DNA of 64,000 nucleotides from an uncultured Mycoplasma sp. (GTDB lineage Bacteria; Bacillota_I; Bacilli_A; RF39; UBA660). Below are positions 6,931-64,000 of the stretch, in pieces. The translations under genes were made by a program, and so were the position numbers. How positions within the stretch are numbered: position 1 is the first letter of the stretch; the number at the start of each line of letters is the position of its first letter. The DNA lies in the NCBI GenBank assembly GCA_964616405.1, contig CAZTRE010000003.1, forward strand, positions 201 to 64,200. Direction: 5' to 3'. The notes under the pieces are model-generated. The model made no database searches and was not told the origin of the DNA. It saw only the letters and a list, made by a program, of their open reading frames with translations.

Positions 6931-7629
6931 ATGGATTTAGTTAGAATAAAAAATGTCGAAAAAAAATATAAAAATGGAGTTACTGCAATTTATGATTTAA
7001 ATCTTGCTATTGAAAAAGGTGCTTTTGTTTTCGTAATAGGTGGATCAGGAAGTGGAAAATCAACGTTAATAAAAATGCTATATCGTGAAGAAAAGCCTAC
7101 TAAAGGGCAAATAATTGTAGGTGGCTTAGATGTTGCTAAATTAAAAAATCGTAAGGTTTATAAATTAAGAAGGAAATTAGGAATTGTATTTCAAGATTAT
7201 AGATTATTACCAAAACAAACGGTATATGAAAATGTTGCCTTTGCTTTAGAAGTAATTGGGGCAACAAAGGATGAAATTAGAGTTAAAGTTTTAAAAGCTC
7301 TTGAAGATGTAGGCTTAAAGCATAAGCTTCATGAATATCCAGATCATTTATCTGGAGGAGAACAACAAAGAGTTGCTATTGCCAGAGCCATAGTAAATGA
7401 TCCAAAATTATTACTATGTGACGAACCTACAGGAAACTTAGATCCAGAAATGAGTATGGAAATAATGAAAGTTCTTGAAGATATTAACAATAACCGTGGT
7501 ACAACTATTGTAATGGTTACTCATGATAAAGATATTGTTAACAAAATGAAAAAACAAGTAATTACTCTAAAAGATGGACGTTTAGTAAACTTTAAGAAGA
7601 AAGGAACTTATAGCAATGAAGCCATTTAG
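6931..7629 (+). CDS. ftsE: cell-division ABC transporter ATP-binding protein FtsE
   Basis: Walker A GGSGSGKST, signature LSGGEQQRVAIARA, Walker B LLLCDEP; 232 aa. Confidence 0.85.
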   Translation: MDLVRIKNVEKKYKNGVTAIYDLNLAIEKGAFVFVIGGSGSGKSTLIKMLYREEKPTKGQIIVGGLDVAKLKNRKVYKLRRKLGIVFQDYRLLPKQTVYENVAFALEVIGATKDEIRVKVLKALEDVGLKHKLHEYPDHLSGGEQQRVAIARAIVNDPKLLLCDEPTGNLDPEMSMEIMKVLEDINNNRGTTIVMVTHDKDIVNKMKKQVITLKDGRLVNFKKKGTYSNEAI

Positions 7630-8515
7630 AATGTTAGGAAGAAGCATCCGTGATGCTTTTAAAAGTGTAATAAGAAACTTTAGTCTATCTTTAGCTTCTA
7701 TTTCTTGTATTACAATAACTTTAATCATTGTCGCAATAGCTATAATTGCTTCATTCAATGTTCAAAATTTTACTAAAGAAATAGAAAAAGATATGACCAT
7801 CGTTGTTTTCTTAGATAATGATGCTACTACTTTAGATAGAAAAGATGTAGAAAGAGAAATCAATTCATTATCCAATGTTGATAAATATACATATCAATCA
7901 AAACAAGATATTAAAAAAAATATGCAAGAAGAATCAGAAATCTTTGACCGAGTATTATCTGAGTGGGATGACGATGAAAGTCCATTAAAAGATACACTAC
8001 AAGTAAAAGTAAAAGATGTTGAAAAAATAAAAAAGACAGCTAAAGAAATCGAAAAAATTGATAAAGTATCAGTTGTAAGATATGGTGAAGGTATGGTAGA
8101 CAAAATGGTTACAGCATTCTCTTCAGTAGAAAAAGTAACATATGGAGTAGTAATAGCTCTAATCATAGTAACTGTATTCTTAATCATTAATACAATTAAA
8201 TTGACAATATCAGCTAGAAAAAGAGAAATAAGTATTATGCGATTAGTTGGTGCTAGTAACTTTACTATTAAAACACCATTTATAATTGAAGGTATGATTT
8301 TAGGAATGTTTGGTTCAATTGTTCCAATAATTTTATCAACATACGGATATTTAGCTTTCTACAATCATTTTGATGGTTACCTTTATTCAGAATTAATTAA
8401 ACTAATTAAGCCTGAGCCATTTATTTATGTCACAGCCTTAATAGTTTTAGTAGTAGGTATGATAGTAGGTATGATTGGTAGTGCAAGTGCTGTTAAGAAG
8501 TACTTAAAAATCTAA
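7616..8515 (+). CDS. ftsX: cell-division permease FtsX
   Basis: Overlaps ftsE. 299 aa, 4 TM with a large extracellular loop, the FtsX fold. Confidence 0.8.
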   Translation: MKPFRMLGRSIRDAFKSVIRNFSLSLASISCITITLIIVAIAIIASFNVQNFTKEIEKDMTIVVFLDNDATTLDRKDVEREINSLSNVDKYTYQSKQDIKKNMQEESEIFDRVLSEWDDDESPLKDTLQVKVKDVEKIKKTAKEIEKIDKVSVVRYGEGMVDKMVTAFSSVEKVTYGVVIALIIVTVFLIINTIKLTISARKREISIMRLVGASNFTIKTPFIIEGMILGMFGSIVPIILSTYGYLAFYNHFDGYLYSELIKLIKPEPFIYVTALIVLVVGMIVGMIGSASAVKKYLKI

Positions 8516-9723
8516 TGAAAAAATTTATTAATCTGCTATTAGTAGTTGTCTTATTAGTTTCATTTTTCGCACTACCAATGAATGCTAATGCAAAGACACT
8601 TGCTCAATTTAGAGAAGAAGTAAAAAAATATACTGACGAATTAAATGCTAAAAAAGCTAACCTTGCTAAAAACGAGGGAGAAGTAGCCACTATTAAAGCC
8701 AAGATATCATCCATCGAGAAACAAATATCTGCAGCAGAAGCTGAAATAGTAAAACTTCAAGAAGAAATTGATGCAAGTAATGAAGAAATTGCTAGAAAAA
8801 GTGAAGAAAGTAAAAAAATCATAGAATATTATCAAATTTCTAATGGAGAAAATATTTACTTAGAATATGCTTTTGGGGCTACAAACATTACTGATATGAT
8901 TTATAGAATGTCTATTGTAGAACAATTAACAGATTATAATGATAAGATAATGAAAGAGTTATCTGAGTTAATTGAAAAGAATAAATCTCAGCAACAAGAA
9001 TTAAAAAAGAAAAAGGAATCTTTAAAGAAATTAGAAGTTCAATTGGAATCCGAAAAAGCCAGAATTGAAGCAGACAGCGCATCAATTCGTGAAAGTATGC
9101 CTTCTATTGAAACACAAATAAGAGAGGCCCAAGCCCAAGTTAAATATTTTGAGTCGCTTAAATGCGGTGAAAATGAAGACATTAATGACTGCCAAGATAG
9201 AATTTCCGGAAGCACCGGTGGTGGAAGTCTTCCAAGTGTAGGATTTTTCTCAAGACCAATGGCAAAAGGTTATGTTACTCAAGGTTCACACGCTGGACAT
9301 ATTGCAGTTGACTTGAGTAGTGGTAATAAATCTGAACCAATCTATGCCATTGCCGAGGGAACAGTTCACGCTATCTATACCGACGACTGTACAAGCGGAA
9401 GATGGTGTGCTGCTGCCGGAATAAAATGTAATGGTAACGCTTTAGTAGTTGTAACAAAGCACAAATATAATGGAAAATACTACTATGTAACATATGCTCA
9501 TATGCGTTCTTACGGAGATATAAGGGTTGGGCAATACGTTACTAGAAATACACTACTTGCATATATGGGAACAACAGGTTGTTCAACTGGCCCACATTTA
9601 CATATGGAAATATCTACTTGTCATTGGAAAAATGGTGGTGGATGTACATATTCAGGATACCAAAAGCAATTTGTTAGTCCATATAATCTAATTAATTTTC
9701 CATCAAGTTGGAATAATAGATAA
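8515..9723 (+). CDS. secreted coiled-coil M23 (LytM-type) peptidoglycan endopeptidase, FtsEX-associated (PcsB/EnvC/RipC analogue)
   Basis: Signal peptide MKKFINLLLVVVLLVSFFALPMNANA, a long coiled coil, and a C-terminal M23 domain with HIAVDL (HxxxD) and GPHLHME (HxH). The start overlaps the ftsX stop. Confidence 0.75.
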   Translation: MKKFINLLLVVVLLVSFFALPMNANAKTLAQFREEVKKYTDELNAKKANLAKNEGEVATIKAKISSIEKQISAAEAEIVKLQEEIDASNEEIARKSEESKKIIEYYQISNGENIYLEYAFGATNITDMIYRMSIVEQLTDYNDKIMKELSELIEKNKSQQQELKKKKESLKKLEVQLESEKARIEADSASIRESMPSIETQIREAQAQVKYFESLKCGENEDINDCQDRISGSTGGGSLPSVGFFSRPMAKGYVTQGSHAGHIAVDLSSGNKSEPIYAIAEGTVHAIYTDDCTSGRWCAAAGIKCNGNALVVVTKHKYNGKYYYVTYAHMRSYGDIRVGQYVTRNTLLAYMGTTGCSTGPHLHMEISTCHWKNGGGCTYSGYQKQFVSPYNLINFPSSWNNR

Positions 9724-10667: not shown

Positions 10668-10825
10668 ATCCTACTAAATATAGTATACCATAAACTTAGC
10701 AACTATAAGTTATAGGCTTAAATATTTCCAAATTTTCTAAAAAATACTCTATTAGAAACAATGACTAAAAATAAAAAATAACTAAGACTTCAAGAACATA
10801 GAAAATAACTATCAACCCAAAAATG

Positions 10826-10854
10826 TTGACAGATAAAATTTAACATGTTAAAAT
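10826..10854 (+). promoter_or_regulatory. sigma-A-type promoter: TTGACA, 17 nt, TGtTAAAAT (extended -10)
   Basis: TTGACA at 10826-10831, 17-nt spacer, extended -10 TGT TAAAAT at 10846-10854. Confidence 0.45.
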
Positions 10855-10887
10855 GGACATGAATTTAAAGAGAGAGGAGTAAGGAAA

Positions 10888-10974
10888 ATGAAAAATCAAT
10901 ATTCAAATATTTTTAATCGATTTATAGTAGTAAACGGAGTGAGTAGAGAATGTATCATTTCCCTTGCTCAATAA
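10888..10974 (+). CDS. 28-aa small ORF (MKNQYSNIFNRFIVVNGVSRECIISLAQ): candidate leader or small peptide upstream of the ABC exporter
   Basis: Strong RBS agagaggagtaagg 7 nt before the ATG. Lies between the predicted promoter and the ABC transporter gene. Confidence 0.3.
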   Translation: MKNQYSNIFNRFIVVNGVSRECIISLAQ

Positions 10975-10991
10975 CTAAGTAACGTTGTATG

Positions 10992-11016
10992 CCTACTATA
11001 AGTAGGTTTAATTTTT
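10992..11016 (+). promoter_or_regulatory. hairpin cctact-ata-agtagg followed by a T-rich run (candidate attenuator or terminator)
   Basis: Perfect 6-bp inverted repeat 10992-11006, followed by tttaattttt, placed between the small ORF and the ABC transporter RBS. Confidence 0.3.
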
Positions 11017-11026
11017 AGGAGGTAAT

Positions 11027-12757
11027 ATGAAAAGTTTAAAAGAATTTAAACCTCTGTGGAAATTAATTAAAGAAGAAAAAGTAAAGTTAATTATTGCGAG
11101 TATTTTAATACTTATTGCTGGTATAGCCGAAATTGCAACTGGCTATTTAAATGGTTCAGCTGTTGAAGCTATAACTAATATGGCTCTAAAAAGAGCTTTT
11201 ATATATTTGCTTATCTATTTGATAGTAGAATTAGTAATTGGCGCTTATATATCAAATATATCTAGCTCAATGCTTCAAAAAATAGAAAGTAAGTTAACTA
11301 GAAAACTGGGATATTATACTTATAGTAAAGCTCTAAATCTGCCATCATATGCCTATGAAGAAAAAACATCAGGAGAAATAACAAACAGAATTATAAATGA
11401 TGCAGATTCTTTAAGTTTTACATTTGGACAATTACTTGATGCCATGGCATCACTTATTGGCTCAGTAGTAGTAATGATATATATTTTCATAAATTCATGG
11501 ATTATTTCCATAGAAATCATTTTATTTGTAATAATACTGGCACTAATTATAAAAAAATATAATCCAATCTTAAAGAAAGCTCACAAAGATCGCAAAGAAG
11601 AACAAGATAAATTTACTTCTTTAGTTACTGAATCCATAAGAGGAATAAGAGAAATCAAAACATTAGGAATAAAAAGAAGTTTATTAACAGATATGGGTGA
11701 AATAATTAAAATGATCTTCAAGAAATCTGAAAATGAAATAGACATTCGTAAGCATTTTAATTTATTAACCCAAGTATTAAAGGGATTTTTAGAAGTTGGT
11801 GTTTTTATTACTTGTGTAATCTTGCTTTATTATAAGCAAATTTCATTAACATTTTTTATTGCCATGACTTACTATGTTTATAGATACATGTGGTTAATTG
11901 AAAATTTCAACAATCTAACTCAAACATATCAAAAACTGGTAGTCTCATTAGGCAGAGTAAATGAAATATTAGAAAATAGATTATATGAAGATGAGAAATT
12001 TGGTTCAATCAATTACAAATCTATAAATGGTGTAATTGAATTCAAAGATTTAACCTTTGGTTATCCGAATGAAAAAATTACATTAAAGAATTTTAATCTA
12101 AAAATAGAACCACACAAAAAGATTGCTATAGTTGGGAAATCTGGTCAAGGCAAATCTACATTATTTAATCTAATAACTAGAATATTTGATCCCCTTGAAG
12201 GAGAAATCTTACTTGATGGTATAGATATTAAAGATTTAAGTGAAGATTCTCTACGTCAAAATATTTCAATAATTAGACAAGAACCATTTATTTTCAATAG
12301 AACAATTAAAGAGAATTTCAAGTTACTAAATTCAAAAATCCCACTAGCGACCATAAGAAAATATACAAAATTGGCCTATCTTGATGACTATATTATGTCA
12401 CTTCCAAAGAAATATGATACCCTTATAGGAGAAAGTGGTGTTAACCTATCAGGCGGCCAAAAACAGCGTTTATCAATTGCGAGAACTTTAGCTAAAGAAA
12501 GTAAAGTTGTTTTATTTGACGAGGCAACTTCAGCTTTAGATAACGATTCCCAAAATTACATAAAACAAGCAATTGATAATCTTGTAGAAGACCACACCGT
12601 TGTAATAGTAGCTCATAGACTTTCAACTATAGTAGATGCTGACATAATCCATATTGTTGATGAAGGACAAATTATCGCATCAGGTACGCATGAAGAATTA
12701 TTAAAAACAAACCAAATATACAAAAATCTTTACGAAACTGAATCTTTAAATTCATAA
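11027..12757 (+). CDS. fused ABC transporter permease/ATP-binding protein (exporter type, MsbA/LmrA-like; no C39 peptidase domain)
   Basis: 576 aa. N-terminal 6-TM domain, then Walker A GKSGQGKST, signature LSGGQKQRLSIAR, Walker B VVLFDEATSALD. Confidence 0.85.
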   Translation: MKSLKEFKPLWKLIKEEKVKLIIASILILIAGIAEIATGYLNGSAVEAITNMALKRAFIYLLIYLIVELVIGAYISNISSSMLQKIESKLTRKLGYYTYSKALNLPSYAYEEKTSGEITNRIINDADSLSFTFGQLLDAMASLIGSVVVMIYIFINSWIISIEIILFVIILALIIKKYNPILKKAHKDRKEEQDKFTSLVTESIRGIREIKTLGIKRSLLTDMGEIIKMIFKKSENEIDIRKHFNLLTQVLKGFLEVGVFITCVILLYYKQISLTFFIAMTYYVYRYMWLIENFNNLTQTYQKLVVSLGRVNEILENRLYEDEKFGSINYKSINGVIEFKDLTFGYPNEKITLKNFNLKIEPHKKIAIVGKSGQGKSTLFNLITRIFDPLEGEILLDGIDIKDLSEDSLRQNISIIRQEPFIFNRTIKENFKLLNSKIPLATIRKYTKLAYLDDYIMSLPKKYDTLIGESGVNLSGGQKQRLSIARTLAKESKVVLFDEATSALDNDSQNYIKQAIDNLVEDHTVVIVAHRLSTIVDADIIHIVDEGQIIASGTHEELLKTNQIYKNLYETESLNS

Positions 12758-31256: not shown

Positions 31257-32033
31257 ATGAAAAATACAAAATTATTAGTAGTAGACGATAACAAAAGTTT
31301 AGTGGAAATGATCAAGGAATATTTTAGTGACCATGCAGATATTAAAGTTTCTTATGAAGCCTACGATGGCGCCGAAGCAATTAGATTGCTTGAAGCCAAA
31401 CAAGAGGACATAGATATATTATTATTAGACCTAATAATGCCGAATAAAGACGGAATAAGTGTTTTAGAATATATGCGTGAGAAAAATATTACAAAGAAAA
31501 CGATAGTATTAACTTCATACAATACTCAGGATATGATTAGAAAGGTTTCTGAACTCGGAGTGAACTACTTTATGTTAAAGCCTTTTGAATTAGACGATTT
31601 AGAGCGAAGGATTACCCAAGTAGCCACTGGCGTAAAATATGGTGGAGAAGGAATTGACTTGTACCATAATAACTTACAAGTTTCTATTACAAAGACTTTA
31701 CATGAATTAGGTGTACCATCCCACATTAAAGGATATCAATATATTCGTGAAGGGATTTCTATAGTATATGAAAGACCAGAAATCGTTGGAGGTATCACAA
31801 AAGAGTTATATCCTGACATTGCCAAGAAATACGATACCACAGTATCTCGTGTTGAAAGAGCAATTAGACATGCGATTGAAATAAGTTGGAATCGAGGCAA
31901 TTGGCAACTAATGGAAGATATCTTCGGTCATAGTGTTGATATTGATAAAGCTAAACCTACTAATTCAGAATTTATTGTTACCGTTGCTGACAAACTAAGA
32001 TTAGAATTTAACAAACCGTTTATTACAAATTAA
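31257..32033 (+). CDS. spo0A: sporulation master response regulator Spo0A
   Basis: Receiver domain (VVDDN...D...K) plus a Spo0A_C domain with the signature [18 protein letters not shown]. Confidence 0.85.
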
Positions 32034-52645: not shown

Positions 52646-53421
52646 AGTTTATAAATTACGCTTACAAGGACAAAAAGCTTAATTTTAAAATTCATAAAGG
52701 GATAATCACAGGTATAACAGGTATCAAAACAAATGAAATAGTTGATTTAGTAGCCCTAAAATACCCAAATACTAACCAAGTATTAGTAGATAACGTAAAA
52801 ATTAATAAGGAAAATATTTTTGAATACAGGCGCCGTATTTCCATAATAGATAAAATTCTTTTAACCCCAGAACCAATTGTATTAGATTTAATGATCTCAC
52901 ATATAAAAACACATAATTTATCAATTAAAGATCCCATAAAAAAAATAAGGGATTCTTTGAAAATAGTAGACCTTCCAGAAAATATTTTATCAAAAGAAAT
53001 ATATCTTCTTTCTGCATCTGAGAAAAAACTTCTTCAACTGGCTATCGCACTTTTATCCAATCCTAGTTTATTAATTTTAGAGGAGCCATTTAAGGATTTA
53101 GATAAACATAATGAAAAGAAAGCAATAATGCTTCTTCAAAGATTAAAAGATCAATTTCACAAGACAATTGTTATTGCATCAGCAGATAGTAATATTTTGT
53201 ATAAATATACAACAGAAATGATTTTTATGAAAAATGATGCAGTTTTTCTAACTGGACCCACTAACGAAGTATATCTAAGAGTCGATCTCTTAAAAAGAAA
53301 TAAATTTGATATTCCCGATATTGTGGAATTTACCTATCTTGCCAAAAAGAAAAAGAGTGTCAGAATAGATTACCATAAAGATGTTAGGGATATTATAAAA
53401 GATATTTATAAGCATATTTAA
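52636..53421 (+). CDS. EcfA'-like ABC ATPase with degenerate Walker A and signature motifs
   Basis: The Walker A region GITGIKTNE is one residue short and lacks GK[ST]. The signature is LSASEKKLLQLAIAL, Walker B LLILEEP, and the H-loop region is ASADSN (no His). Confidence 0.5.
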   Translation: MELKFINYAYKDKKLNFKIHKGIITGITGIKTNEIVDLVALKYPNTNQVLVDNVKINKENIFEYRRRISIIDKILLTPEPIVLDLMISHIKTHNLSIKDPIKKIRDSLKIVDLPENILSKEIYLLSASEKKLLQLAIALLSNPSLLILEEPFKDLDKHNEKKAIMLLQRLKDQFHKTIVIASADSNILYKYTTEMIFMKNDAVFLTGPTNEVYLRVDLLKRNKFDIPDIVEFTYLAKKKKSVRIDYHKDVRDIIKDIYKHI

Positions 53422-53436
53422 AAGGGGAGATGTATA

Positions 53437-54198
53437 ATGCGATTTTTAATCAAATTTTCTTACGATGGCTCAGCTTATAATGGTTATCAATATCAACCGG
53501 GTTTAGATACCATCCAAAAACGTTTAGAAACGGCTTTAAGAATAATTAACAACAACAAAAAAACTTCAATTACATCAACTGGTCGTACAGATAAAGGTGT
53601 TCATGCTTTATGTCAATATGCCCACGCTGATTTAGATGTAGACATAACTGAATATAAACTAAAAAGGGCGATGAATAGTAATCTTCCTGATGATATTCAT
53701 ATCATTGAAACCCATATTGTACCGGATGACTTTCATGCAAGGTATAATGTTGCCTCTAAAGAATACAAATATTATATAAACTTAGGTGAATATAACCCAA
53801 TAGAAAGAAATTATGTTTTTCAATATAATTACACTTTAAATACAAAAGCTATGCAGAAAGCTATTAAAGTTTTTGAGGATACTCATGACTTCAGAGCTTT
53901 TGTAACAGAAAATAAAGAAAAAGAAAACTGTGTTCGAACCATAACTGAAGCTACAGTAGAACAACAAAATGATAAACTAATTATAACCTTCAAAGGAGAT
54001 GGATTTCTTCGCTATCAAGTCAGAAATATGGTCGGTATATTAATTAAGGTAGGAGAAAATAAAATATTCACAGAAGATGTGGAAAAAATTCTCGAAAGTA
54101 GGGATCGAACTACCTCAGGAAAAACCGCTCCAGCAGAAGGACTTTATCTTACAAATGTAACTTATAAAGATATGGAGATATTGATAAATAAGAAATAA
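53437..54198 (+). CDS. truA: tRNA pseudouridine(38-40) synthase
   Basis: MRFLIKFSYDGSAYNGYQYQP...TGRTDKGVHA is the TruA catalytic Asp motif. Confidence 0.85.
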   Translation: MRFLIKFSYDGSAYNGYQYQPGLDTIQKRLETALRIINNNKKTSITSTGRTDKGVHALCQYAHADLDVDITEYKLKRAMNSNLPDDIHIIETHIVPDDFHARYNVASKEYKYYINLGEYNPIERNYVFQYNYTLNTKAMQKAIKVFEDTHDFRAFVTENKEKENCVRTITEATVEQQNDKLIITFKGDGFLRYQVRNMVGILIKVGENKIFTEDVEKILESRDRTTSGKTAPAEGLYLTNVTYKDMEILINKK

Positions 54199-54237
54199 TA
54201 ATATATAATAACTAAAAAACGCATATAGGAGGGTAAA

Positions 54238-54591
54238 ATGACATTATTAGACACACTTATAGAAAACAGTCTAGAATTTGCATCTATATCAGCTAGTGCA
54301 TATACGACAATTCAAACTGTTGACGATGATGATCTTGCATCAACAACAGTAGGTTTAGCTACAACTACTATTCTTAACAGTATTGAGGTTCCAGAAGCTA
54401 AAACAGTTCAAACAACTAACGAAATGAGTGCATATATTGAAACTATGTCCATTGAAGAAATAGATCAAGGACTAAAATACTTAGATGAAAAAGGGCTTGA
54501 ATTTTTAACTATAGAAACTTCATCCGATGAAAGCATAAATACTGAATGTAATGATACGAAAGTACTAATCAAAACTCCAAAGCAACCATAA
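54238..54591 (+). CDS. hypothetical acidic Thr/Ser-rich protein
   Basis: 117 aa with RBS aggaggg. No recognisable domain. Confidence 0.45.
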   Translation: MTLLDTLIENSLEFASISASAYTTIQTVDDDDLASTTVGLATTTILNSIEVPEAKTVQTTNEMSAYIETMSIEEIDQGLKYLDEKGLEFLTIETSSDESINTECNDTKVLIKTPKQP

Positions 54592-54659
54592 ATGTTGCTT
54601 TTTTAGCTAATTTATGTTATAATAAGTGCCATTCAAAGAGAATGGAGGGGGAAAAATTT

Positions 54660-55559
54660 ATGGAATCAAGAGAAGAGCTAAAGAAGAAAATAGCTCGATG
54701 TGATAAACTAGGTGCGAAAAAGTTTCAACCATATGTTTTAAAGCTTGAAGAGTTTAAGTTCAAAGTTCTAAAAGATATTTTTCCATCTCTACCAAAACGA
54801 TACGAAAAGTTTTGCCGTAAGAAACGTGACAAGGCTTTAAAAAAAGCTAAGACTCAAGCAGAAAAAGATAAAATATTAGCTATTTATCGTCGGTTAATTA
54901 TCGATTGGCGAAAAGAGTTAAAAAGAGAACAGAATAGAAATTATCATATGGATGAAAACAAACCAACAGAGTTTATTAATTATCTAAATTGGAATAAAAA
55001 AGTTCATCAAAAGGGACTAATAAAAGATGGATTGCTTTTTTCAGCTACAGTTTTAGGTTTAGCCTTAGGTTTAACGCCAATAGTTTTGGTACCAGCCTTA
55101 GTTTATGAATTAATTTCAGCTTTTATAAATTTTCAATGTATTAATATTCAAAATAGTCATATATATAGATATAAATTAATAGAAGAAAACCTTAAAAAAA
55201 GAGAAATCCGTAAAGGTAAAAAATTAGTAGAAAATTATGGAGAAGCAGCTAACGTTTATTCCAGAAGTATTGCTAATAATAAGGAATTACCAAGCATTCA
55301 AGATATGATAAATAATGTTACAACACCAGAAGAAGCTAGACAATTAAGACAGATGCTTTTAGAAAAAATAGAAAAAAATAATAAAGAACATCCAGAACAA
55401 GCAGTAAATTGTCCGGTGACAACATCGCCTCAAGTACCAGAAACACAAACAATAAGCGACCAAAATGAACTAAAAGCAAATTTAGAAATAGAAAAAATGG
55501 TCAACGAAGGCTCTACCACAGTTGAACCGGTCATTCAAAAACATAAAGGAGGAAAATAA
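54660..55559 (+). CDS. hypothetical membrane-anchored protein (basic coiled-coil N-terminus, central TM segments)
   Basis: Start refined to the ATG at 54660 after RBS GGAGGGGG. Hydrophobic stretch LLFSATVLGLALGLTPIVLVPALVYELISAF. Confidence 0.45.
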   Translation: MESREELKKKIARCDKLGAKKFQPYVLKLEEFKFKVLKDIFPSLPKRYEKFCRKKRDKALKKAKTQAEKDKILAIYRRLIIDWRKELKREQNRNYHMDENKPTEFINYLNWNKKVHQKGLIKDGLLFSATVLGLALGLTPIVLVPALVYELISAFINFQCINIQNSHIYRYKLIEENLKKREIRKGKKLVENYGEAANVYSRSIANNKELPSIQDMINNVTTPEEARQLRQMLLEKIEKNNKEHPEQAVNCPVTTSPQVPETQTISDQNELKANLEIEKMVNEGSTTVEPVIQKHKGGK

Positions 55560-55561
55560 TT

Positions 55562-55939
55562 ATGGGATTTTTACATTCAACAACAACATTAGTTGAAACA
55601 GCAATGCTAACAACACCAACAAGTACCACATTCTCTGGAATAGGTGTTAACGAAGATGGAACTGCTTATGTGAATAATAAAGCCAGAGTAGGAACAGGAA
55701 TAGTTGCATCGTCTGCTATAACAACACTTCCAACAATTCAAGATTGGGATCACCAAAGGGTAATTAATAATGTTCAAAGTGAAATGGCAATTATTGAAGT
55801 TGCCTCAGAAGAAGACTTAAGATTGGGAGTGGCAGAATTAGACAAAATGCTAGATGCTGCTTCATTATTAGATGAGAGAGGTACAGATACCATAAGTGAA
55901 TCCGGCTATGCTAAAAAGCCTTATACAAAACAATTATAA
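55562..55939 (+). CDS. hypothetical Thr-rich protein
   Basis: 125 aa, translationally coupled to the upstream gene (stop, 2 nt, ATG). Confidence 0.45.
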   Translation: MGFLHSTTTLVETAMLTTPTSTTFSGIGVNEDGTAYVNNKARVGTGIVASSAITTLPTIQDWDHQRVINNVQSEMAIIEVASEEDLRLGVAELDKMLDAASLLDERGTDTISESGYAKKPYTKQL

Positions 55940-55983
55940 GCAATAATACTAAAAAAGGTATTGCATTTTAGAACATTTTTTAG

Positions 55984-56065
55984 TATAATCATAATCGGTA
56001 CATTCAAATATCCCCACATAAATTAGACCGTGGGAAAGTCTGATTTAAGTAAAAGGAGAAAAAAT
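55984..56065 (+). promoter_or_regulatory. promoter (-10 TATAAT 55984-55989) plus structured rplM leader (L13-leader-like hairpin cccac...gtggg 56013-56033)
   Basis: -10 hexamer and a stem-loop in the 5' UTR of rplM. An r-protein L13 leader motif is known in Bacillota. Confidence 0.35.
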
Positions 56066-56497
56066 ATGACAAGTTATATGCAAAAAAAAGAAACTGTAGA
56101 ACGTAAATGGTATGTAATAGATGCTGAAGGAAAATCTTTAGGTCGTGTTGCTAGTTTAGCAGCTACATACTTACGCGGAAAACACAAACCAACTTATACT
56201 CCACACATTGATTGTGGAGACAATATCGTTATTATTAATGCGGAGAAAGTTAATCTAACTGGAAACAAATTAGAAAACAAAATGTACTATAATCACTCAA
56301 TGTATCAAGGTGGATTAAGAGAAAGAACTGCTAAAGTAATGAGAGAAGAATATCCTGTTGAAATGATGGAGAGAGCTGTTAAAGGTATGCTTCCACATAA
56401 TAGACTAGGAAGACAAATGGCTAAAAAGTTATTTGTATATGCTGGAAATGAACACAAACAACAAGCACAAAAACCAGAAGTGCTTGAAGTAAAGTAG
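56066..56497 (+). CDS. rplM: 50S ribosomal protein L13
   Basis: Start refined to the ATG at 56066 after RBS aaaggaga; product [20 protein letters not shown]... Confidence 0.9.
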
Positions 56498-56510
56498 GAG
56501 GGTTTAAGTT

Positions 56511-56936
56511 ATGGCAAAAGAAAAGAAAAATGTTTATACTGGAACTGGACATAGAAAAACTAGTGTAGCTCGTGTTACATTAACTCCAGGAAAAGGAAAG
56601 ATTACTGTTAATGGTCAAGATGTTCATGATTATTTACCTTTCGAAGTACTAGTAATGGATTTATGTCAACCACTTGATATTACAAATACCAGAGAAATGT
56701 TTGATGTAGATGCAAAAGTAAAAGGTGGAGGATTCTCAGGTCAAACTGGTGCTATCCGTCACGCTATTACAAGAGCATTATTAGATTATGATAAGACAAC
56801 TCCAGCTGATTCTGAAAATAGTTTCAGAAAAACATTAAAAGTTGCTGGATTCATTACAAGAGATTCTCGTAAGAAAGAACGTAAAAAACCAGGTCTTAAA
56901 AAAGCACGTCGTGCACCACAATTCTCAAAACGTTAA
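56511..56936 (+). CDS. rpsI: 30S ribosomal protein S9
   Basis: C-terminal [17 protein letters not shown] is the conserved S9 tail. Confidence 0.9.
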
Positions 56937-57126
56937 TCTACAAAAGTTTCAATATTTCAAAAGCTCGTTTTTACGGGCTTTTTTGCTTATCAGAAATATA
57001 ATAATTAGCTAACTTTTAAGCCGTAGGCTACAAAGTATTGTAAAATCTCTTTATGTATTTTAAACTAGCAGAACCGGCTTAGTGTTTTGCGATATAATTT
57101 AAACAGATAGGATGGTATTAATTTGA

Positions 57127-57255
57127 AATGAAAAACACAATTAAAAGACTAAAAATATATATGCCTAAACTAGACGATTATTGGTATGAACGGAAGTTAC
57201 AAAGTGATTCAGATACAATGAGCTATAATGTTAGATGGAATGTAAAAAATTACTA
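57127..57255 (+). pseudogene. possible N-terminal fragment of a GNAT acetyltransferase (42-aa remnant)
   Basis: MKNTIKRLKIYMPKLDDYWYERKLQSDSDTMSYNVRWNVKNY, then stop. The pattern resembles the N-terminus of RimL-type GNATs. It sits in a 600-bp non-coding stretch. Confidence 0.2.
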
Positions 57256-57547
57256 AAATATTACTAAGATTGTATGAGATATATTTCATAAACTACAAAT
57301 CTCCATGCAACAATATAAATAAAAGAAAGTTAATTTAAATAGCGGTAATATACAAGTTACGATATTACAAGGTCTGTATTTATGGGCTTTTTGTTATTCT
57401 GAATTTAGTAAAAAAATTTTTTGAGACCGCAGAATGCAAAAAACTTTATAAACCATTCCATTTGCTTTTTAATAAGTTATACATAAAATGAACTTTGTAA
57501 ATTATTAAATGTGTGTTATAATACAAAACTATAAGTAGGGGATAAAT

Positions 57548-58156
57548 ATGGAAAAATATCAATATGGAGTAGATTATTCGGCATATGATATGGAATTAAT
57601 AGAAAAAATGTTTAACATAAGAATATGTGGAGTTCCATTAAGTTTTTATTTACTTGATTTAAGAAAGACGGACACTTACTGTCATTTGAATTCTGATGTG
57701 TTGGCATATTTTATGGAAGGGTCAAACAGGGTTGAAGGAGAGATACCAACTATTCCTGGTGATGATAAGGGCCATTCTTGGGTAGAAAAAGATGATATTG
57801 TTTTTGATACCACTCAAGGATTGATATGGGATAAAGAATCATATTATGAATGCTATGCTCCACATAATTGTATTGTTTTATCTAGAGAAGGTTCAAAAGA
57901 ACGAATAAAAGAATACTTGCAATATCAGGATAATTGTCCTGAAATGTATGTTGCTACAATTCGTGATATCGAAGAAGAAATCCCTAATATGATGTATGGT
58001 AAAATACTACGCTCTCATATTGATAGATTTATAGCTGAGAAAAAATTAGATAGTCTTGAATTAGATTCTGAATTGATTGGGAAATTTATAGTTGATTTAA
58101 AATCAGTATATCAACACACACAAGAATTTAAAGATGGTGGCACTAAGGAGAGTTAA
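57548..58156 (+). CDS. transglutaminase-like (papain-fold) putative cysteine peptidase/amidase
   Basis: 202 aa with a Cys motif (DTYCHLNSDVLAYF), a His motif (GHSWVE) and an Asp motif (IVFDTT) in the order and spacing of the transglutaminase-like C-H-D triad. Confidence 0.45.
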   Translation: MEKYQYGVDYSAYDMELIEKMFNIRICGVPLSFYLLDLRKTDTYCHLNSDVLAYFMEGSNRVEGEIPTIPGDDKGHSWVEKDDIVFDTTQGLIWDKESYYECYAPHNCIVLSREGSKERIKEYLQYQDNCPEMYVATIRDIEEEIPNMMYGKILRSHIDRFIAEKKLDSLELDSELIGKFIVDLKSVYQHTQEFKDGGTKES

Positions 58157-58348
58157 TCGTAAATGCTCAATAAATAATTAAAATAATCAAGAAATCATAA
58201 AGGCATTTGTAATTAATTTAAGTAATCTACTATTGGTTGTAAAAACTAATAGAATTAAATATTTTTAAATTTTTCCATTGCTAGCGCCATTCTTTTAACA
58301 GCCAAAAAGGCAAACGATATAGATCTACTTAATGAAAGACTAAGAAAG

Positions 58349-58807
58349 TTGATTGATAATTTAAATAATGGTAGTATTAACAAATATTATTACTCAATAG
58401 AAGATTGTGATGACTTAATTCAGACGTTAATACAATCAAAAGAATTTTACCAAAAATACTATATAGACTATTATAAAAAAGAAATAGAATCCGCATCTAT
58501 AAATGAGGTTCGCTTACCATTTCTACCCTTTGATATGTTTATCAGTGATTTAACAACATCTATAAATAATGATTCATATTTTGGAATAATAATAGATAAA
58601 CAAAAAGATATAGCGCTTTCTTCAACTAAAGTAATAAATAGTTTAGTAGGAAGTCGAATAAACAAAGATATTTCTATGAAGATTGCCGTTGAACCTAAAA
58701 AATGGGATTCATATATATCTGTTAATGGACAATTAATAGAATATGTGCATGATTATGATATAGTTGAATTAGATGATTCGCAATCTCAATATTCGAAAAA
58801 AATTTAA
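58349..58807 (+). CDS. hypothetical protein with uncertain start (TTG at 58349; no in-frame ATG upstream)
   Basis: The open frame actually extends back to 58253 with a protein-like sequence but no ATG. It may be a decayed or alternatively initiated gene. Confidence 0.3.
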   Translation: MIDNLNNGSINKYYYSIEDCDDLIQTLIQSKEFYQKYYIDYYKKEIESASINEVRLPFLPFDMFISDLTTSINNDSYFGIIIDKQKDIALSSTKVINSLVGSRINKDISMKIAVEPKKWDSYISVNGQLIEYVHDYDIVELDDSQSQYSKKI

Positions 58808-58856
58808 AAGTCTTTTAATGAGAACCATTATACAAATTAAAAGTTTGTATGATATT

Positions 58857-59537
58857 ATGAATATGGATGTGATAGAAGTGAAGAAGATGAATTCAATAAA
58901 TTTAAGTACAACTAGGTTGGATTTAAAAATTCCAACTATGAAAGAACAACACAGGTTATGGGAACTTCTTATTGATGAAGATGTTAATAAATATTATTTT
59001 CCAACCCCTAATAGGATTTTTGTAAGTAACAATCTTAATAAAGAAAACCTAGATGATTTAAAAAAAGCTAGAGAAATTTTTATAAAGCAATTATCCGATT
59101 GGGAAAGACAAGAACCATTTTATGAAAAAAAGATAGAAAGTATTAAACTACAAGAAGATAGTCAAAAATTTACTTGGAGTATTTTTCTAAAAGATACAGA
59201 TAATGTAATTGGCCAAATTACCTGTCAACCTAAGGATAGACAACCAGAAAATATTAGAGATGTAGGATGGTATATAGCTCCCTATTATCAAGGCAATGGT
59301 TACGCAACAGAAGCAGCATCAGCGGTTCTAGACTTTATGTTTAATGTTATAGAGATTACGGATATTAACACATCAGCTGCAAAAATAAATCCCGCATCAT
59401 GGAAAATTATGGAGAAACTTGGTTTTGAGTATATTAAAACATCAAAATCCACATACTTTGATGATAATAACATACTAGATGCAAAAGAATATCATTGTAA
59501 TAAAGAACTATTTTTAAATAGAAATATAAATAAGTAA
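58857..59537 (+). CDS. GNAT-family N-acetyltransferase (RimJ/RimL-like)
   Basis: NIRDVGWYIAPYYQGNGYATEAASAVLDFMF (GNAT motifs A and B). Start is uncertain: ATG 58857 or 58887. The track's 58773 start overlaps the upstream gene. Confidence 0.65.
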   Translation: MNMDVIEVKKMNSINLSTTRLDLKIPTMKEQHRLWELLIDEDVNKYYFPTPNRIFVSNNLNKENLDDLKKAREIFIKQLSDWERQEPFYEKKIESIKLQEDSQKFTWSIFLKDTDNVIGQITCQPKDRQPENIRDVGWYIAPYYQGNGYATEAASAVLDFMFNVIEITDINTSAAKINPASWKIMEKLGFEYIKTSKSTYFDDNNILDAKEYHCNKELFLNRNINK

Positions 59538-59540
59538 AAG

Positions 59541-59568
59541 AAAGCGTTTTCTAACGCTTTTTTATTTT
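59541..59568 (+). terminator. intrinsic terminator
   Basis: aaagcgtt-ttct-aacgcttt hairpin followed by T-run. Confidence 0.65.
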
Positions 59569-59597
59569 TAACATATATTACTAATAGGAGGTAATTT

Positions 59598-59963
59598 ATG
59601 CTTAATTTTGAATTCTTAAGAGAACTATTAGTAATTTCTATTATATTAAGTACAATAACTTGTGCTTTTATTCAAAAAACAAAAAAGCAATTTAAAAATA
59701 GTAAATGTTTACCAATCTATTCGTTTATAGTAAATATGACTATTGGAGTAATATTCTGTATTTCATTTACTGAGATTTCATTTCCTACAAGTCTGTGGGT
59801 CGGACTATTTTCATTTATTGGAGCTGATTCACTATATAAATCTTTAGAAGGAAAACTAGCTTCATACACGGATATCGTTAATCGAAATAAAGTTGCAATT
59901 CCTAAAGAGAACATTATAAATAGGGAGGAAACATCAAATGGAAAAACCACTATATCCAAGTAA
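59598..59963 (+). CDS. small 2-TM membrane protein, holin-like
   Basis: 121 aa. Strong RBS taggaggtaa. Two hydrophobic helices (LLVISIILSTITCAFI and IVNMTIGVIFCISFTEISFPTSLWVGLFSFIG) and a charged C-terminal tail. Its stop overlaps the start of the downstream M23 gene. Confidence 0.5.
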   Translation: MLNFEFLRELLVISIILSTITCAFIQKTKKQFKNSKCLPIYSFIVNMTIGVIFCISFTEISFPTSLWVGLFSFIGADSLYKSLEGKLASYTDIVNRNKVAIPKENIINREETSNGKTTISK

Positions 59964-60615
59964 ATACATGCGTATTACACAATCCTATGGAGTTGGTAGT
60001 CATTATGATAGTTATGCAATTGATGAGGCCGGCATTGATCAAGGAATATCAACTTTAGTTGCCCCATTTACAGGAATAATTAAAAAGATTTACACGACTG
60101 ATGCTAACGAAGTGTGGTTAGAAAGTACAGAACCAGTTGCCTATCCAGATGGAACCATTGATTATATGACAATAATGTTAGCTCATTCTAACGATGCCAG
60201 TAATTTATTTGTCGGCCAAAGAATCAATAGAGGAGAAGCATTTTATAGCGAAGGTACCAAGGGTCAAGCAACCGGCAACCACTGTCATATTGAATGTGGC
60301 AAGGGACGTTTCTATGGAACGGGTTGGTATAAAAATCAAAATGGCAACTATTCAATAAACAATAATAAAAAACCGGAAGAGTGTCTTTGGATAGATGATT
60401 CAATCACTATTCTTGATAATCAGGGAATTACTTTCAAAAAAATTACAGAAATACCACCCACTGAAGAACAACCAGATGAAGAAAAGCCACCGGAACCAAT
60501 CCAACCAGTAGAAGAACCACCAACACTAATTTATACATGTAAAACCAAAGGATTATACGGAATTTATCTTTCTCCAAATGACAAAGTATATCTAAAAAAA
60601 GAAACCAAAAACTAA
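59938..60615 (+). CDS. M23-family (LytM/lysostaphin-type) metalloendopeptidase without signal peptide, with Pro/Glu-rich C-terminal linker
   Basis: RBS agggaggaaa. HYDSYAID (HxxxD region) and the block AHSNDASNLFVGQRINRGEAFYSEGTKGQATGNHCHIE matching the M23 consensus through HxH. No N-terminal hydrophobic signal. PEPIQPVEEPP linker. Confidence 0.65.
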   Translation: MEKPLYPSKYMRITQSYGVGSHYDSYAIDEAGIDQGISTLVAPFTGIIKKIYTTDANEVWLESTEPVAYPDGTIDYMTIMLAHSNDASNLFVGQRINRGEAFYSEGTKGQATGNHCHIECGKGRFYGTGWYKNQNGNYSINNNKKPEECLWIDDSITILDNQGITFKKITEIPPTEEQPDEEKPPEPIQPVEEPPTLIYTCKTKGLYGIYLSPNDKVYLKKETKN

Positions 60616-60673
60616 AATTTTAAAAAAATAATTAAATTCATAGGACATTTCAAGGAAGATAGGAAAATAATTG

Positions 60674-60702
60674 TTGTAAAAACATTGAAAAAAAGTTATA
60701 AT
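60674..60702 (+). promoter_or_regulatory. sigma-A-type promoter: TTGTAA, 17 nt, TATAAT, upstream of essC
   Basis: TTGTAA at 60674-60679, exactly 17-nt spacer, TATAAT at 60697-60702. Confidence 0.45.
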
Positions 60703-60738
60703 TACATATAGAATAGGAATAATAACTGGGGTGATCTT

Positions 60739-63700
60739 AGTGATTGTAAGATTAATCAAAAAAAGCAAAATTTTTAATTTCACATTACCTACCAAAGTTT
60801 CTGGAAATTACTGGATCACAGATAATGATTATCTTGGAAATGTTAGGAATTTAATTAACGTTGAAGAAGACAATGGAAATTGGAAAATTAAGAGTGACTT
60901 TGAAACAAAGATTATGAATGGTGACCAAGAGATTGATTCGGCCATTCTTCAAGAATATAGTCTATACTTTTTAAAAATAAATACTGATAATGAGTATGTT
61001 ATTTTATATTGCTCACCAAGTACCGAAAAAAATACACTTAAGTTGCGCCTTAAATCCCAAGGTGAACTAATCATTGGTAGTGATCAAAATGCCCAAATTA
61101 GTTATTCTTACCCACTAGTATCAAAACAACAAGCAAAACTCATTTATAATAATGGGACGTGGGTAATCCAAGATTTAAATAGTAAATATGGTACTTACGT
61201 TAATAACGTTGCAGTAACATCTCAAACCTTAGAGTATGGTGATATTATCTTTATAATGGGTTTAAAAATAATAGTTATGGAACAATCTTTAATAATTAAT
61301 AGTATTGGTAATTATATTAATTTTGATCGTGGACTATTTGATACTGAAAGACCATTAGTTCAAAATCAAACAGAAGAAGACAATCCAGACGAAGAAGGAA
61401 TCGAGTTTTTTAAAGAAGAGGATTATTTTTATCGTGCTCCTCGTTTTAAAACCCGCATTGAAGAGGTTAATATAGGAATTGATCCTCCTCCTGGTAAAGA
61501 AGCTGAGGATAAGACACCACTAATTATGACTTTAGGCCCAATGATGACTATGGCAATGATGTCTTTATCAACAGGACTTAGTGCTTTTATGAATGTTTTA
61601 AATGGAACAGTAGATGTAAAAGATGTTTCTTCAACCCTTTTAACTTCAGGAGCCATGTTATGTACAATGATTATTTGGCCTCTATTATCACAAAAATATC
61701 AAAAAGCGCAACGTAAAAAAAGAGAGACTTTACGCTTAAAGAAGTATAACGAATATGTTGAATCAAAACGCGAGAATATCCAAGCGGAAATGAAGATTCA
61801 GCGTCAAATTTTAATTGATAATTATTTACCACTTTCCTCAACAAAAGAAATTATTCTTTCTAAGAAGAGAAACCTATGGGAAAGAGAAATAGAACAAGAA
61901 GACTTCTTGGATTTACGTCTTGGTATTGGTTCAACACCATTATTTGGTAATGTAAGTTTTCCAGAAGAACATTTTTCCTTAGAAACAGATGATTTATTAA
62001 AGGAAGTATATAAATTAGGCAAAGAATCAAGAATGCTTGAAAATGTACCAATCTCATTATCATTTGTTCAAAAGAATATTTCCGCAATAATTGGAACAAC
62101 AGCTAATAAACGTCAATTTGTGGATGGATTAATCCTTCAAATGCTTGCATACCACAGTTATGAAGATTTAAGAATAGTTGTTTTTACAAATGAAAAGAAT
62201 GCTCCATATTGGGAATACTTAAAAGTTGCTCCTCATGTTTGGAGTAATGATAAAAGTGTTAGATATTTTGCCACAAACCTAGATGAGGCTAAAGAAATCT
62301 CATTAGTTCTAGAAAAGGAACTTCAATCCCGAAAATTCAAAGATAACAATGGTAAAATGGAACTAAATAATTTAGATTATAGACACTATAAGCCATATTA
62401 TGTAATTTTTACTGATGATTATAAGGGTGTAAGAGATATTGAGATTATTAAAGATGTTGCCGCTACATCATTCAATGTTGGTTTCAGTATGATTGTCTTA
62501 AGTCCAAGATTAATAAATATTCCCAATGAATGTAAAACTTTCATCAGTATTGGTGATAAAAAATCTGGAGTATTTGAAAATGAATTAGTTTCAAACAAAC
62601 AAAAAGAATTTCTAGCTGATTTTGATCCAACTTTAAATATGTATGAATGCTGTAAAGTATTAGCTAACATTCCGATTGATATTGGTAAAGAAAATCAACA
62701 ATTGCCAACCTCTTTAACGTTCCTAGAAATGTATAATGTAGGTATGGTTGAACAATTAAATATCTTAAATAGATGGAAACAAAATGATCCAACTAAATCG
62801 CTTCAAGCACCAATTGGAGTAGATAAAACTAGGGAATTGTTTAAACTAGATTTACATGAAAAATTTCATGGACCCCATGGCCTTATCGCCGGTATGACTG
62901 GTTCTGGTAAATCAGAATTTATTATTAGTTATATTATTTCAATGGCTCTAAACTATCATCCATACGAAGTATCATTCGTCCTTATTGACTACAAAGGTGG
63001 AGGTTTGACCGGAGCTTTTGAGAATAAAGAGACTGGCATGAAATTACCACATCTTGCTGGAACAATTACCAACTTAGATACCAATGAAATGAATCGTTCC
63101 TTAGCGTCAATTCAATCAGAACTTCGTAAACGTCAGCGCATGTTTAATGAAGCTAGGGATAAACTAAACGAGAGTACTATCGATATATATAAATATCAAG
63201 GCCTTTACCGTAAAGGATTAGTTTCAAAACCAATTTCTCACTTGTTTATTATTAGTGATGAGTTTGCTGAGCTTAAATCTCAACGACCAGAGTTTATGGA
63301 TCAATTAATTTCAACTGCGCGTATTGGTCGTTCCTTAGGAGTTCACCTTATTCTTGCTACCCAAAAACCAGCCGGAGTTGTTAATGAACAAATCTGGTCA
63401 AATACAAAATTTCGTGTCTGCTTAAAAGTACAAGATAAAACAGACAGTAACGATATGATTAAACGTCCAGATGCTGCTGATTTAAAAGAAACAGGTCGTT
63501 TCTACTTACAAGTTGGTTATAATGAATTATTCGCTATGGGTCAAGCAGCTTGGGCTGGAGCTAAGTATTATCCAACTGAAAAACGTAAAAAGAAAGTAGA
63601 TCAATCAATTAGTATTATTGATAATGTCGGTAATGTAGTAAAATCTCTAGATACTAAAAATGATGAAGTTAAAGTAGAAGCTAAAGGAGAAGAAATTACA

Positions 63701-64000
63701 AGTATAATTAAATATATTGTTGATGAAGCAAAACGAGAAAATATTGCTATAGAACAGTTATGGTTAGATAAAATTCCCGATAAGATTTTTGTTGAAGAAT
63801 TAAAGAAAAAATACAACTATGAGATTAAGAAGAATGTAATTAATCCAGTAATTGGTGAATATGATGATCCAGACAACCAACAACAAAATATTTTAACCCT
63901 ACCAATTTCAACCGATGGAAATACAATTGTCTTTGGATCCGGTGGAAGTGGAAAAGAGCTTATGCTTCAAAATATCGTTTATTCTACGATTACCACCCAT
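60739..64000 (+). CDS. essC: type VII secretion system FtsK/SpoIIIE-family ATPase EssC/YukB (3'-partial, runs off the window)
   Basis: GTG start after ggggtga. Two N-terminal FHA-like domains, two TM helices, then D1 ATPase (HGPHGLIAGMTGSGKSE...LIDYKGGG...FIISDEFAELK...RIGRSLGVHLILATQKP) and the start of D2 (VFGSGGSGK). These motifs are typical of S. aureus EssC. No stop before position 64000. Confidence 0.9.

Follow-up and report, generated by a model that had tools for sequence, protein, structure and literature searches.

A holin and signal-less M23 endopeptidase of phage origin near essC in uncultured gut Bacilli: a candidate sporulation lysis module

Why should a phage-style holin-endolysin gene pair lie next to essC, a gene of the type VIIb secretion system (T7SSb), on the chromosome of an uncultured gut bacterium? 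This arrangement occurs near the end of a 64,000-nucleotide (nt) stretch of contig CAZTRE010000003.1 from an uncultured Mycoplasma sp. (hereafter, the window), in which a gene for a small membrane protein and a gene for an M23 peptidase precede essC. An initial annotation of the window proposed that the pair is a wall-remodeling module dedicated to T7SS assembly or export or, alternatively, a remnant lysis module. We identified 80 loci in a scan that took one genome per species, and 83 related loci were compared in total; open reading frames (ORFs) were called in all of these loci and clustered, and gene order was then read. The comparison speaks against both proposals. The reading that we favor, at about even chances, is that the pair is a domesticated phage lysis cassette that would be switched on late in sporulation and serve mother-cell lysis and spore release. 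The genes, their phage ancestry, and their conserved setting are described below as observed; the sigma factor, the timing, and lysis as the outcome are what we infer from sequence.

The first gene of the pair (59598-59963, + strand) encodes a protein of 121 amino acids (aa) that is a phage-type holin by sequence and topology, with hole formation as its predicted activity. This protein scores 26.9 bits against the Pfam model Phage_holin_5_1 (PF06946, Hol118-like; cut-off, 22.4 bits) and also matches the holin family phrog_1299. Among 38 distinct orthologs, phrog_1299 is matched by 34 and the Pfam model by 12 (E ≤ 0.01), and all PHROG matches of the orthologs are, without exception, to holin families. 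Hydropathy analysis of the window protein revealed hydrophobic segments at residues ~8-25, 38-58 (strong), and 62-78 (weaker), and its C-terminal tail is charged (8 K/R and 5 D/E). The two transmembrane segments first described therefore correspond to two strong hydrophobic segments, but a weaker third one (62-78) is also present, and the resulting three-segment pattern resembles that of Hol118-type holins with three transmembrane segments. In one subclade, a lambda-like dual-start (MKxM) holin/antiholin motif was considered and dropped, because the upstream GTG falls within the Shine-Dalgarno sequence.

The second gene (59938-60615, + strand) overlaps the holin reading frame by 26 nt, with GGGAGGA ahead of its start codon, in line with the coupling of the two frames first proposed. 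The 225-aa product consists of a catalytic domain (residues 1-170), a Pro/Glu-rich linker modeled with low confidence, and a conserved C-terminal tail of ~30 aa. Its maximum mean Kyte-Doolittle value is 1.24; no hydrophobic segment is present and, therefore, no signal peptide or transmembrane helix, as the initial annotation had stated for the signal peptide. On its own, the protein matches the Pfam M23 model (PF01551) below threshold (E = 0.13). A 41-sequence profile searched against PDB sequences retrieved the M23 domain of phi29 gp13 (3csq; E = 1e-6), and the AlphaFold model (predicted local distance difference test [pLDDT], 81.8) had the same structure as its best Foldseek match in the PDB (E = 6e-10), followed by PrgK LytM, EnpA, LytM, and lysostaphin. 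Residues H22, D29, H83, H115, and H117, whose equivalence to LytM residues was set by motif order, are invariant in 84 of 84 orthologs, including those from loci without essC. The catalytic residues are thus all present on alignment, as claimed earlier, but the first zinc motif is Hx6D rather than HxxxD, followed by the central H83 and by H115-x-H117. Fold, profile, and invariant residues together identify a zinc endopeptidase of the M23 (LytM/lysostaphin) type that has no signal peptide, retains the complete H…D, H, HxH site, and is predicted to be lytic.

Four cysteines of the M23 protein are also conserved, two of them (C120 and C149) without exception and the other two (C116 and C201) almost without exception. 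Two of the four flank the HxH motif (HCHIEC), and C201 belongs to the C-terminal tail. Conceivably, these residues might bind a second metal, form a disulfide, or act as a cysteine switch that keeps the enzyme latent. A second M23 wall hydrolase in the window, of conventional type, follows ftsE-ftsX (6931-9723, + strand); this 402-aa protein is secreted and combines an M23 domain with a PcsB-type coiled coil.

The initial description of the pair as a phage-style cassette was confirmed not only by the holin family matches and the M23 fold but also by phage genomes. In two IMG/VR phage contigs (L085 and L086), tail-fiber genes are followed by a holin gene (127 or 123 aa) and then by an endolysin gene (333 or 324 aa). 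Phage cassettes of a Hol118-type holin and an M23 endolysin (L085 and L086; phi29 gp13, 3csq) resemble the window pair in gene order and in having abutting or overlapping frames. The first 171 residues of the L085 and L086 endolysins, which cover the catalytic domain, are 62% and 52% identical, respectively, to the window M23 protein, and their last ~25 residues align with its extreme C-terminal tail, whereas the ~110-aa central (wall-binding) region and the coiled coil of the phage enzymes are absent from the chromosomal one. The window holin and the L085 holin share the C-terminal motif I-x-I-P-x-E-N-I-I (C-terminal ends: IKIPTENIIDRGE in L085 and IxIxKENIINxE in the chromosomal holins), although their overall similarity is weak (hhalign probability, 30%). 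A tblastn search of 50,697 phage genomes with the holin yielded no match. Next in similarity to the M23 protein come the endolysin of Clostridium innocuum phage Amboise, an ORF of a gut microvirus, and tail lysins of Enterococcus phages; in Amboise, the endolysin gene is preceded by a gene that has no similarity to the window holin.

Unlike the phage cassettes, the chromosomal pair has no phage context, occupies a fixed site after rplM-rpsI, and is preceded by a putative host sporulation-type promoter. Its GC content equals that of its surroundings, and the composition profile revealed no foreign-DNA signature. Given its phage homologs and its host-like GC content, the pair is, as judged from these sequence data, a long-domesticated phage lysis cassette and neither a recent nor a decaying prophage fragment. 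An inactive prophage remnant that came to lie beside essC by chance would share the phage origin and could explain the missing central domain of the endolysin. However, the M23 protein has 886 database homologs (the best 120 of these are 58-82% identical, and none is annotated), the pair is found at the same chromosomal site in ~80 species-level genomes, its catalytic residues, holin, and promoter element are all conserved, and no other phage genes were seen near it in the window or in the related loci. These conservation data effectively refute a remnant, the probability of which we consider negligible, and the decaying lysis module of the initial annotation falls with it.

A side observation concerns the microvirus. 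The 5.5-kb genome from moose feces (MG641182.1 / NC_040350.1) encodes, at positions 2478-2993, a protein that is 38% identical to the M23 catalytic domain. Such a lysis enzyme is unusual for a microvirus and hints that its host may belong to this group of Gram-positive gut Bacilli.

All 80 loci are from uncultured gut Bacilli labeled Tenericutes, Mycoplasma sp. CAG:877, Clostridium sp. CAG:417, Candidatus Onthousia, and similar. The data suggest that the clade carrying the pair comprises Spo0A-encoding uncultured gut Bacilli of the RF39/RFN20-like metagenome-assembled genomes (MAGs), with orders given according to MAG labels. The holin gene directly precedes the M23 gene in every locus but one, which is cut 74 nt upstream of M23, and rplM-rpsI are located upstream of the pair wherever the upstream flank is present. 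The usual block consists of rplM-rpsI, variable genes, holin, M23, an opposite-strand ZIP zinc transporter gene, variable genes, and a CwlD-like Amidase_3 gene, followed by the essC cluster (if present), opposite-strand genes for a SpoIID-domain protein and a Zn-dependent phospholipase C-family (PLPC) protein, and then Abi_2 and HtrA.

This gene order bears directly on the proposed T7SS role, in which the holin would locally release the M23 enzyme and thereby open the wall for assembly of, or export by, the EssC machine. The model for such a role is EssH of Staphylococcus aureus, a CHAP-domain wall hydrolase dedicated to the T7SSb and reported to be recruited by it (PMC13059805). EssH resembles the window enzyme in that its gene, too, adjoins T7SSb genes; it differs in that the window enzyme is an M23 rather than a CHAP protein, has no signal peptide, has a holin partner, and persists without essC. 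EssH is exported by Sec. In favor of a T7SS module, no gene separates M23 from essC in 11 of the 34 essC loci (the window plus 10 others, drawn from its close relatives and from three additional lineages), the pair in locus L070 is followed at once, on the same strand, by a T7SS variant that has WXG100-like genes, and EssB, EsaA, and EssA are lacking within 10 kb, so that unusual helpers are conceivable.

Nevertheless, the pair is maintained independently of essC. In the 57 loci for which this could be determined, the essC cluster is present in 34 and absent in 23; 10 of the latter retain the whole block with an empty essC slot, the other 13 have no essC within at least 9 kb, and the pair is kept with its active-site residues in all 23. 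Clustering of the M23 proteins indicated that essC is absent from one large clade and was lost at least four further times among neighbors that bear essC (e.g., L041 versus L053). Even where essC is present, other genes intervene in 23 of the 34 loci, mostly including one on the opposite strand; the usual interveners are the opposite-strand ZIP transporter gene and the CwlD-like amidase gene. Both are missing in the window lineage, and M23 and essC therefore abut there, so that their adjacency is best read as a lineage-specific accident of gene order. The conserved promoters also differ (CATA-type for the pair and TTGTAA-17-TATAAT for essC, as detailed below), and a membrane-permeabilizing holin poorly suits a machine that needs an energized living cell. 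We therefore consider a dedicated T7SS role very unlikely. The pair does occur apart from T7SS genes in relatives, one of the outcomes that the initial annotation had envisaged, but not inside prophages, as had been supposed for that case.

If not the T7SS, what might control the pair? An intrinsic-terminator-like hairpin with a T run (59538-59570, + strand; hairpin proper, 59538-59563) ends the upstream gene for a GNAT acetyltransferase (58773-59537), and the terminator described earlier ahead of the cassette (59541-59568) is thus present. A putative sporulation-type promoter of the holin-M23 operon lies at 59552-59580 (+ strand), with a -35-like TAACG (C at 59555), a 16-nt spacer, and the -10 element CATATATTA at 59572-59580. 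Single promoter-like matches in the AT-rich window are not above chance (25 found versus 28.5 expected from shuffled sequence), and it is therefore conservation across relatives that supports them. Likewise, a scan of the whole window for further (G/T)CATAnAnTA promoters gave 18 matches in total, none convincingly placed, against a shuffled expectation of 15.9, so that what gives the motif weight is solely its conservation upstream of the holin gene. There, 70 of 75 distinct sequences, which have otherwise diverged, carry (G/T)CATAnAnTA 24-31 nt ahead of the start codon, and a GTnnC(a/c) element lies upstream of the CATA motif (C at -17 in 51 of 70). In Bacillus subtilis, the -35 and -10 consensus sequences are TYATATTT and KCATANANTN for σE, KCACM and GCATANNNTA for σK, and GNATA and CAWAMTA for σG (PMC3416734, Table 4). 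The holin element fits both of the mother-cell -10 consensuses, which are B. subtilis derived, and its -35 is a partial match that is closer to σK than to σE. These similarities point to a putative mother-cell promoter of the σE/σK type.

Other promoters of the same genomes provide a contrast. As same-genome controls, rplM, essC, and the PLPC gene have TTGnnn-17-TATAAT, and among the gene families of the locus, start-adjacent elements of the CATAnnnTA or CATAnAnT type were found only for the holin, the ZIP transporter (gCATAnnnTA in 47 of 61, with a GCCCA motif upstream), and the CwlD-like amidase (aCATATAnT). The SpoIID-domain gene (e.g., L001 16163-17233, - strand) carries a conserved, σG-like GTATA-17-CATACTA. 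The elements of these four gene families (holin, ZIP, CwlD-like, and SpoIID) are tightly spaced relative to the start codon. CATA motifs upstream of rplM and infA were discarded, as they lie within leader RNA and within a coding region, respectively. As a separate observation, the SpoIID-gene element matches the forespore σG consensus and not the σE promoter expected for spoIID.

The sporulation setting is provided in part by the window itself, which contains spo0A (31257-32033, + strand; Pfam Response_reg and, at 137.5 bits, Spo0A_C). Despite the "Tenericutes" and "Mycoplasma" labels of related MAGs, the master regulator of endospore formation is thus encoded in this organism, and two genes of the relatives' syntenic block are the SpoIID-domain and CwlD-like genes mentioned above. 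Spore formation has been predicted for RF39 and for some families of RFN20 and ML615J-28 (PMC10868615). The retention of the pair with or without essC, together with the sporulation-type promoter, makes a spore-release module likelier than a part of the T7SS. In the mechanism that we propose, a two-gene operon derived from a phage lysis cassette, now a fixed and vertically inherited chromosomal module, would be read from the CATA-type promoter by a mother-cell sporulation sigma factor, with a -35 that would suit σK better than σE. The holin would build up in the mother-cell membrane and then permeabilize it, whereby the cytoplasmic, signal-less zinc endopeptidase would reach the peptidoglycan and cut its peptide cross-links. 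Mother-cell lysis and spore release would be the most likely outcome.

Several points weigh against this proposal. Spore formation by these uncultured organisms is itself predicted, and the sigma factor assignment is drawn from a 9-nt motif and a weak -35. The invariant T-A-n-A-n-T core of the motif overlaps a σA -10 element, and in the window, the base before CATA is an A rather than a G or T. The implied start of the holin transcript would coincide with the Shine-Dalgarno sequence or lie just ahead of it, and the leader would then be unusually short (~10-17 nt); the same short-leader geometry is found at the CwlD-like and SpoIID-like genes. Furthermore, the counts of essC presence and absence apply to this locus, and the T7SS variant adjoining the pair in L070 makes this a recurrent T7SS neighborhood.

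Comparison with characterized systems places the candidate lysis module among familiar kinds. EndD of Clostridioides difficile (M7404_02200 / CD630 ortholog) is a conserved, non-prophage, signal-less endolysin whose transcription is SigK dependent and for which roles in mother-cell lysis and protein release have been proposed (PMC13320862, PMC11344133). Like the window pair, EndD is chromosomal, signal-less, derived from a phage endolysin, and conserved (across its species, in the case of EndD). EndD is an Amidase_3 (CD27L-like) enzyme with neither an adjacent dedicated holin nor a known exporter, whereas the window enzyme is an M23 with its own holin; moreover, EndD is SigK dependent, whereas the sigma dependence of the window pair is suggested by its motif. 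In B. subtilis, the amidases CwlC and CwlH are mother-cell lysis enzymes, and CwlC also has no signal peptide. Late mother-cell expression of a wall hydrolase would be common to CwlC, CwlH, LytH, and, if our promoter reading holds, the window pair; CwlC and CwlH differ from the window enzyme by their amidase fold, and LytH differs by its role in the cortex. We know of no holin partner for these wall hydrolases in Bacillus.

The case of LytH, reportedly a σK-dependent B. subtilis M23 enzyme that trims cortex peptide stems, raises the possibility of a role in cortex maturation, in which a mother-cell M23 enzyme would cross the outer forespore membrane via the holin and trim the peptide stems of the cortex. 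The CATA promoter evidence would apply equally to such a role, and in relatives, the pair has as a neighbor the CwlD-like amidase gene, which belongs to a cortex-modifying family and has a similar promoter. However, the enzyme is most closely related to lytic endolysins and tail lysins of phages (62% identity), holins kill the producing cell and are not known for selective enzyme delivery, and known cortex enzymes carry signal or anchor sequences. We regard cortex maturation as improbable.

Autolysis outside sporulation is a further alternative, in which the pair would release proteins, DNA, or vesicles from a vegetative or stationary subpopulation in the manner of "type 10" systems (TcdE/TcdL- or ChiWXYZ-like). 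Here, too, a domesticated holin and a signal-less hydrolase or lysin lie outside any prophage, such systems have been documented in clostridia (PMC11344133), and EndD ties a SigK-dependent lysin to toxin release. TcdE/TcdL and other "type 10" systems, however, flank a defined cargo (large clostridial toxins and chitinases), whereas no cargo gene is conserved beside the window pair, and the conserved element is of the sporulation type, unlike the σA promoters of the same genomes. Release of this kind seems rather unlikely to us, and mother-cell lysis at the end of sporulation remains the reading that we prefer.

What, then, is the neighboring essC locus? The window contains the first 1,087 codons of essC (60740-64000, + strand; the gene runs past the window end), which encode an FHA domain, two transmembrane segments, and the first FtsK/SpoIIIE ATPase domains (Pfam FHA and FtsK_SpoIIIE). 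The identification of essC proved correct: the window fragment scores 804 bits and the full-length L001 ortholog 1,015 bits against the EssC equivalog TIGR03928 (cut-off, 778). Two details of the initial annotation did not survive, since Pfam detects one FHA domain only instead of an FHA-FHA architecture, and the gap between M23 and essC is not 55 nt but 124 nt for the most likely start (GTG 60740, 6 nt after GGGGTG) or 115 nt for GTG 60731. As had been suggested, essC is a separate transcription unit with its own σA-type promoter, TTGTAA-17-TATAAT (60674-60702), followed by a short leader ending in the Shine-Dalgarno sequence GGGGTG (the promoter and leader span 60674-60739, + strand). The promoter and the leader, AGAATAGGAATAATAAC..GGGGTG, are kept in 30 of 31 essC loci. 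The leader itself (60703-60739, + strand; AGAATAGGAATAATAACtGGGGTG) is nearly invariant across species with diverged flanking DNA, which suggests a regulatory role beyond ribosome binding.

Gene content beyond the window end was deduced from a relative that is 76% identical. Downstream of essC, relatives have three small genes (products of 85 aa, ~70-90 aa, and ~70 aa) and then a gene in convergent orientation. Sequence conservation of the 85-aa protein is high, and its model is a ubiquitin-like beta-grasp fold (pLDDT, 85.8). Most of the structures that it matches are generic ubiquitin-like proteins; the matches also include, with template modeling scores of 0.73-0.78, ESX-5 chains (7npt/7np7), whose ubiquitin-like domain we take to be that of EccD5, and chain 9qks_A from the T7b core unit of B. 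subtilis. The modeled fold is consistent with EsaB/YukD, although no sequence-level match to EsaB/YukD was found in Pfam, in NCBIfam, or with a profile against PDB sequences. The other two proteins (p94 and p69) are small and helical-looking by sequence, with conserved W-x-(D/N)-Q-D-N and L-N-K-D-A-D motifs; neither has a Pfam or NCBIfam match above threshold (p69 has a weak ESAT6_2 match, E = 0.022), and profile searches of all three small proteins against PDB sequences gave chance-level matches only. Neither the 10 kb on either side in relatives nor the 59 kb of the window that precede the pair contain a recognizable EssB/YukC, EsaA/YueB, or EssA/YueC, in accordance with the earlier remark that EssB and EsaA genes are missing upstream. 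The expectation of a non-canonical T7SS locus was likewise borne out, with the ubiquitin-like protein and two small helical proteins alone following essC in relatives. The best explanation is that essC and the three small genes form a separate, σA-driven, reduced T7SSb-like unit in a variable slot of a conserved block, possibly a minimal T7SSb. This reduced locus, without recognizable EssB, EsaA, or EssA nearby, merits separate study.

A different T7SS variant is found in L070 (10809-20718, + strand), directly after the holin-M23 pair and on the same strand. It comprises unknown proteins of 509 and 471 aa, an EssC that is 37% identical to the others, an 83-aa ubiquitin-like homolog, and five small ORFs, two of which carry W-V-G motifs (WXG100, E = 9e-5). 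The presence of this second variant beside the pair indicates that the site recurrently hosts T7SS genes.

Further observations were made along the block. In most relatives, the ZIP-family zinc transporter gene converges on that of the zinc-dependent M23 enzyme (e.g., L024 ~10750-11550, - strand), and the two may be coregulated; the transporter gene is absent from the window. Upstream of rplM (window ~55950-56065, + strand; loci L001-L043), TTGAnn-17-TATAAT is followed by a strongly conserved leader of ~80 nt, AATCGGTACATTCGAATATCCCCACATAAATTAGACCCTGGGAAAGTCTGATTTAAG, presumably the L13 autoregulatory leader; a search of positions 53000-64000 with Rfam at the gathering threshold returned no RNA family. 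Between truA and rplM (54238-55939, + strand), the window has three conserved ORFs without Pfam matches (u117, u305, and u125; 117, 305, and 125 aa), of which u305 has a hydrophobic stretch and lysine-rich stretches, and u117 and u125 are Thr-rich and acidic. Orthologs of these ORFs occur in many, but not all, relatives, and a co-occurrence with essC was discarded as inconsistent across relatives.

Domesticated holin-endolysin systems and sporulation-controlled lysins are both known kinds of systems. The broader proposal, which we advance tentatively and with less than even confidence, is that a whole clade of genome-reduced gut Bacilli frees its spores by means of a holin-gated, captured cassette under a late mother-cell sigma factor, with many members also carrying an adjacent stripped-down T7SSb that consists of EssC, two small helical proteins, and a YukD-like protein and has neither EssB nor EsaA nor EssA in its vicinity. 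The comparison of ~80 related genomes, in which the apparent link between the T7SS and the lysin vanishes, is also a caution against inferring function from adjacency. By what route lytic enzymes without a signal peptide get out of the mother cell when sporulation ends is an unsettled question, and we know of no exporter for B. subtilis CwlC or C. difficile EndD. If our reading is true, a holin partner that is conserved and has a promoter of the sporulation type would be a simple and testable answer to this question, and the pair would represent a clean case of phage lysis genes turned into a developmental tool of the host.

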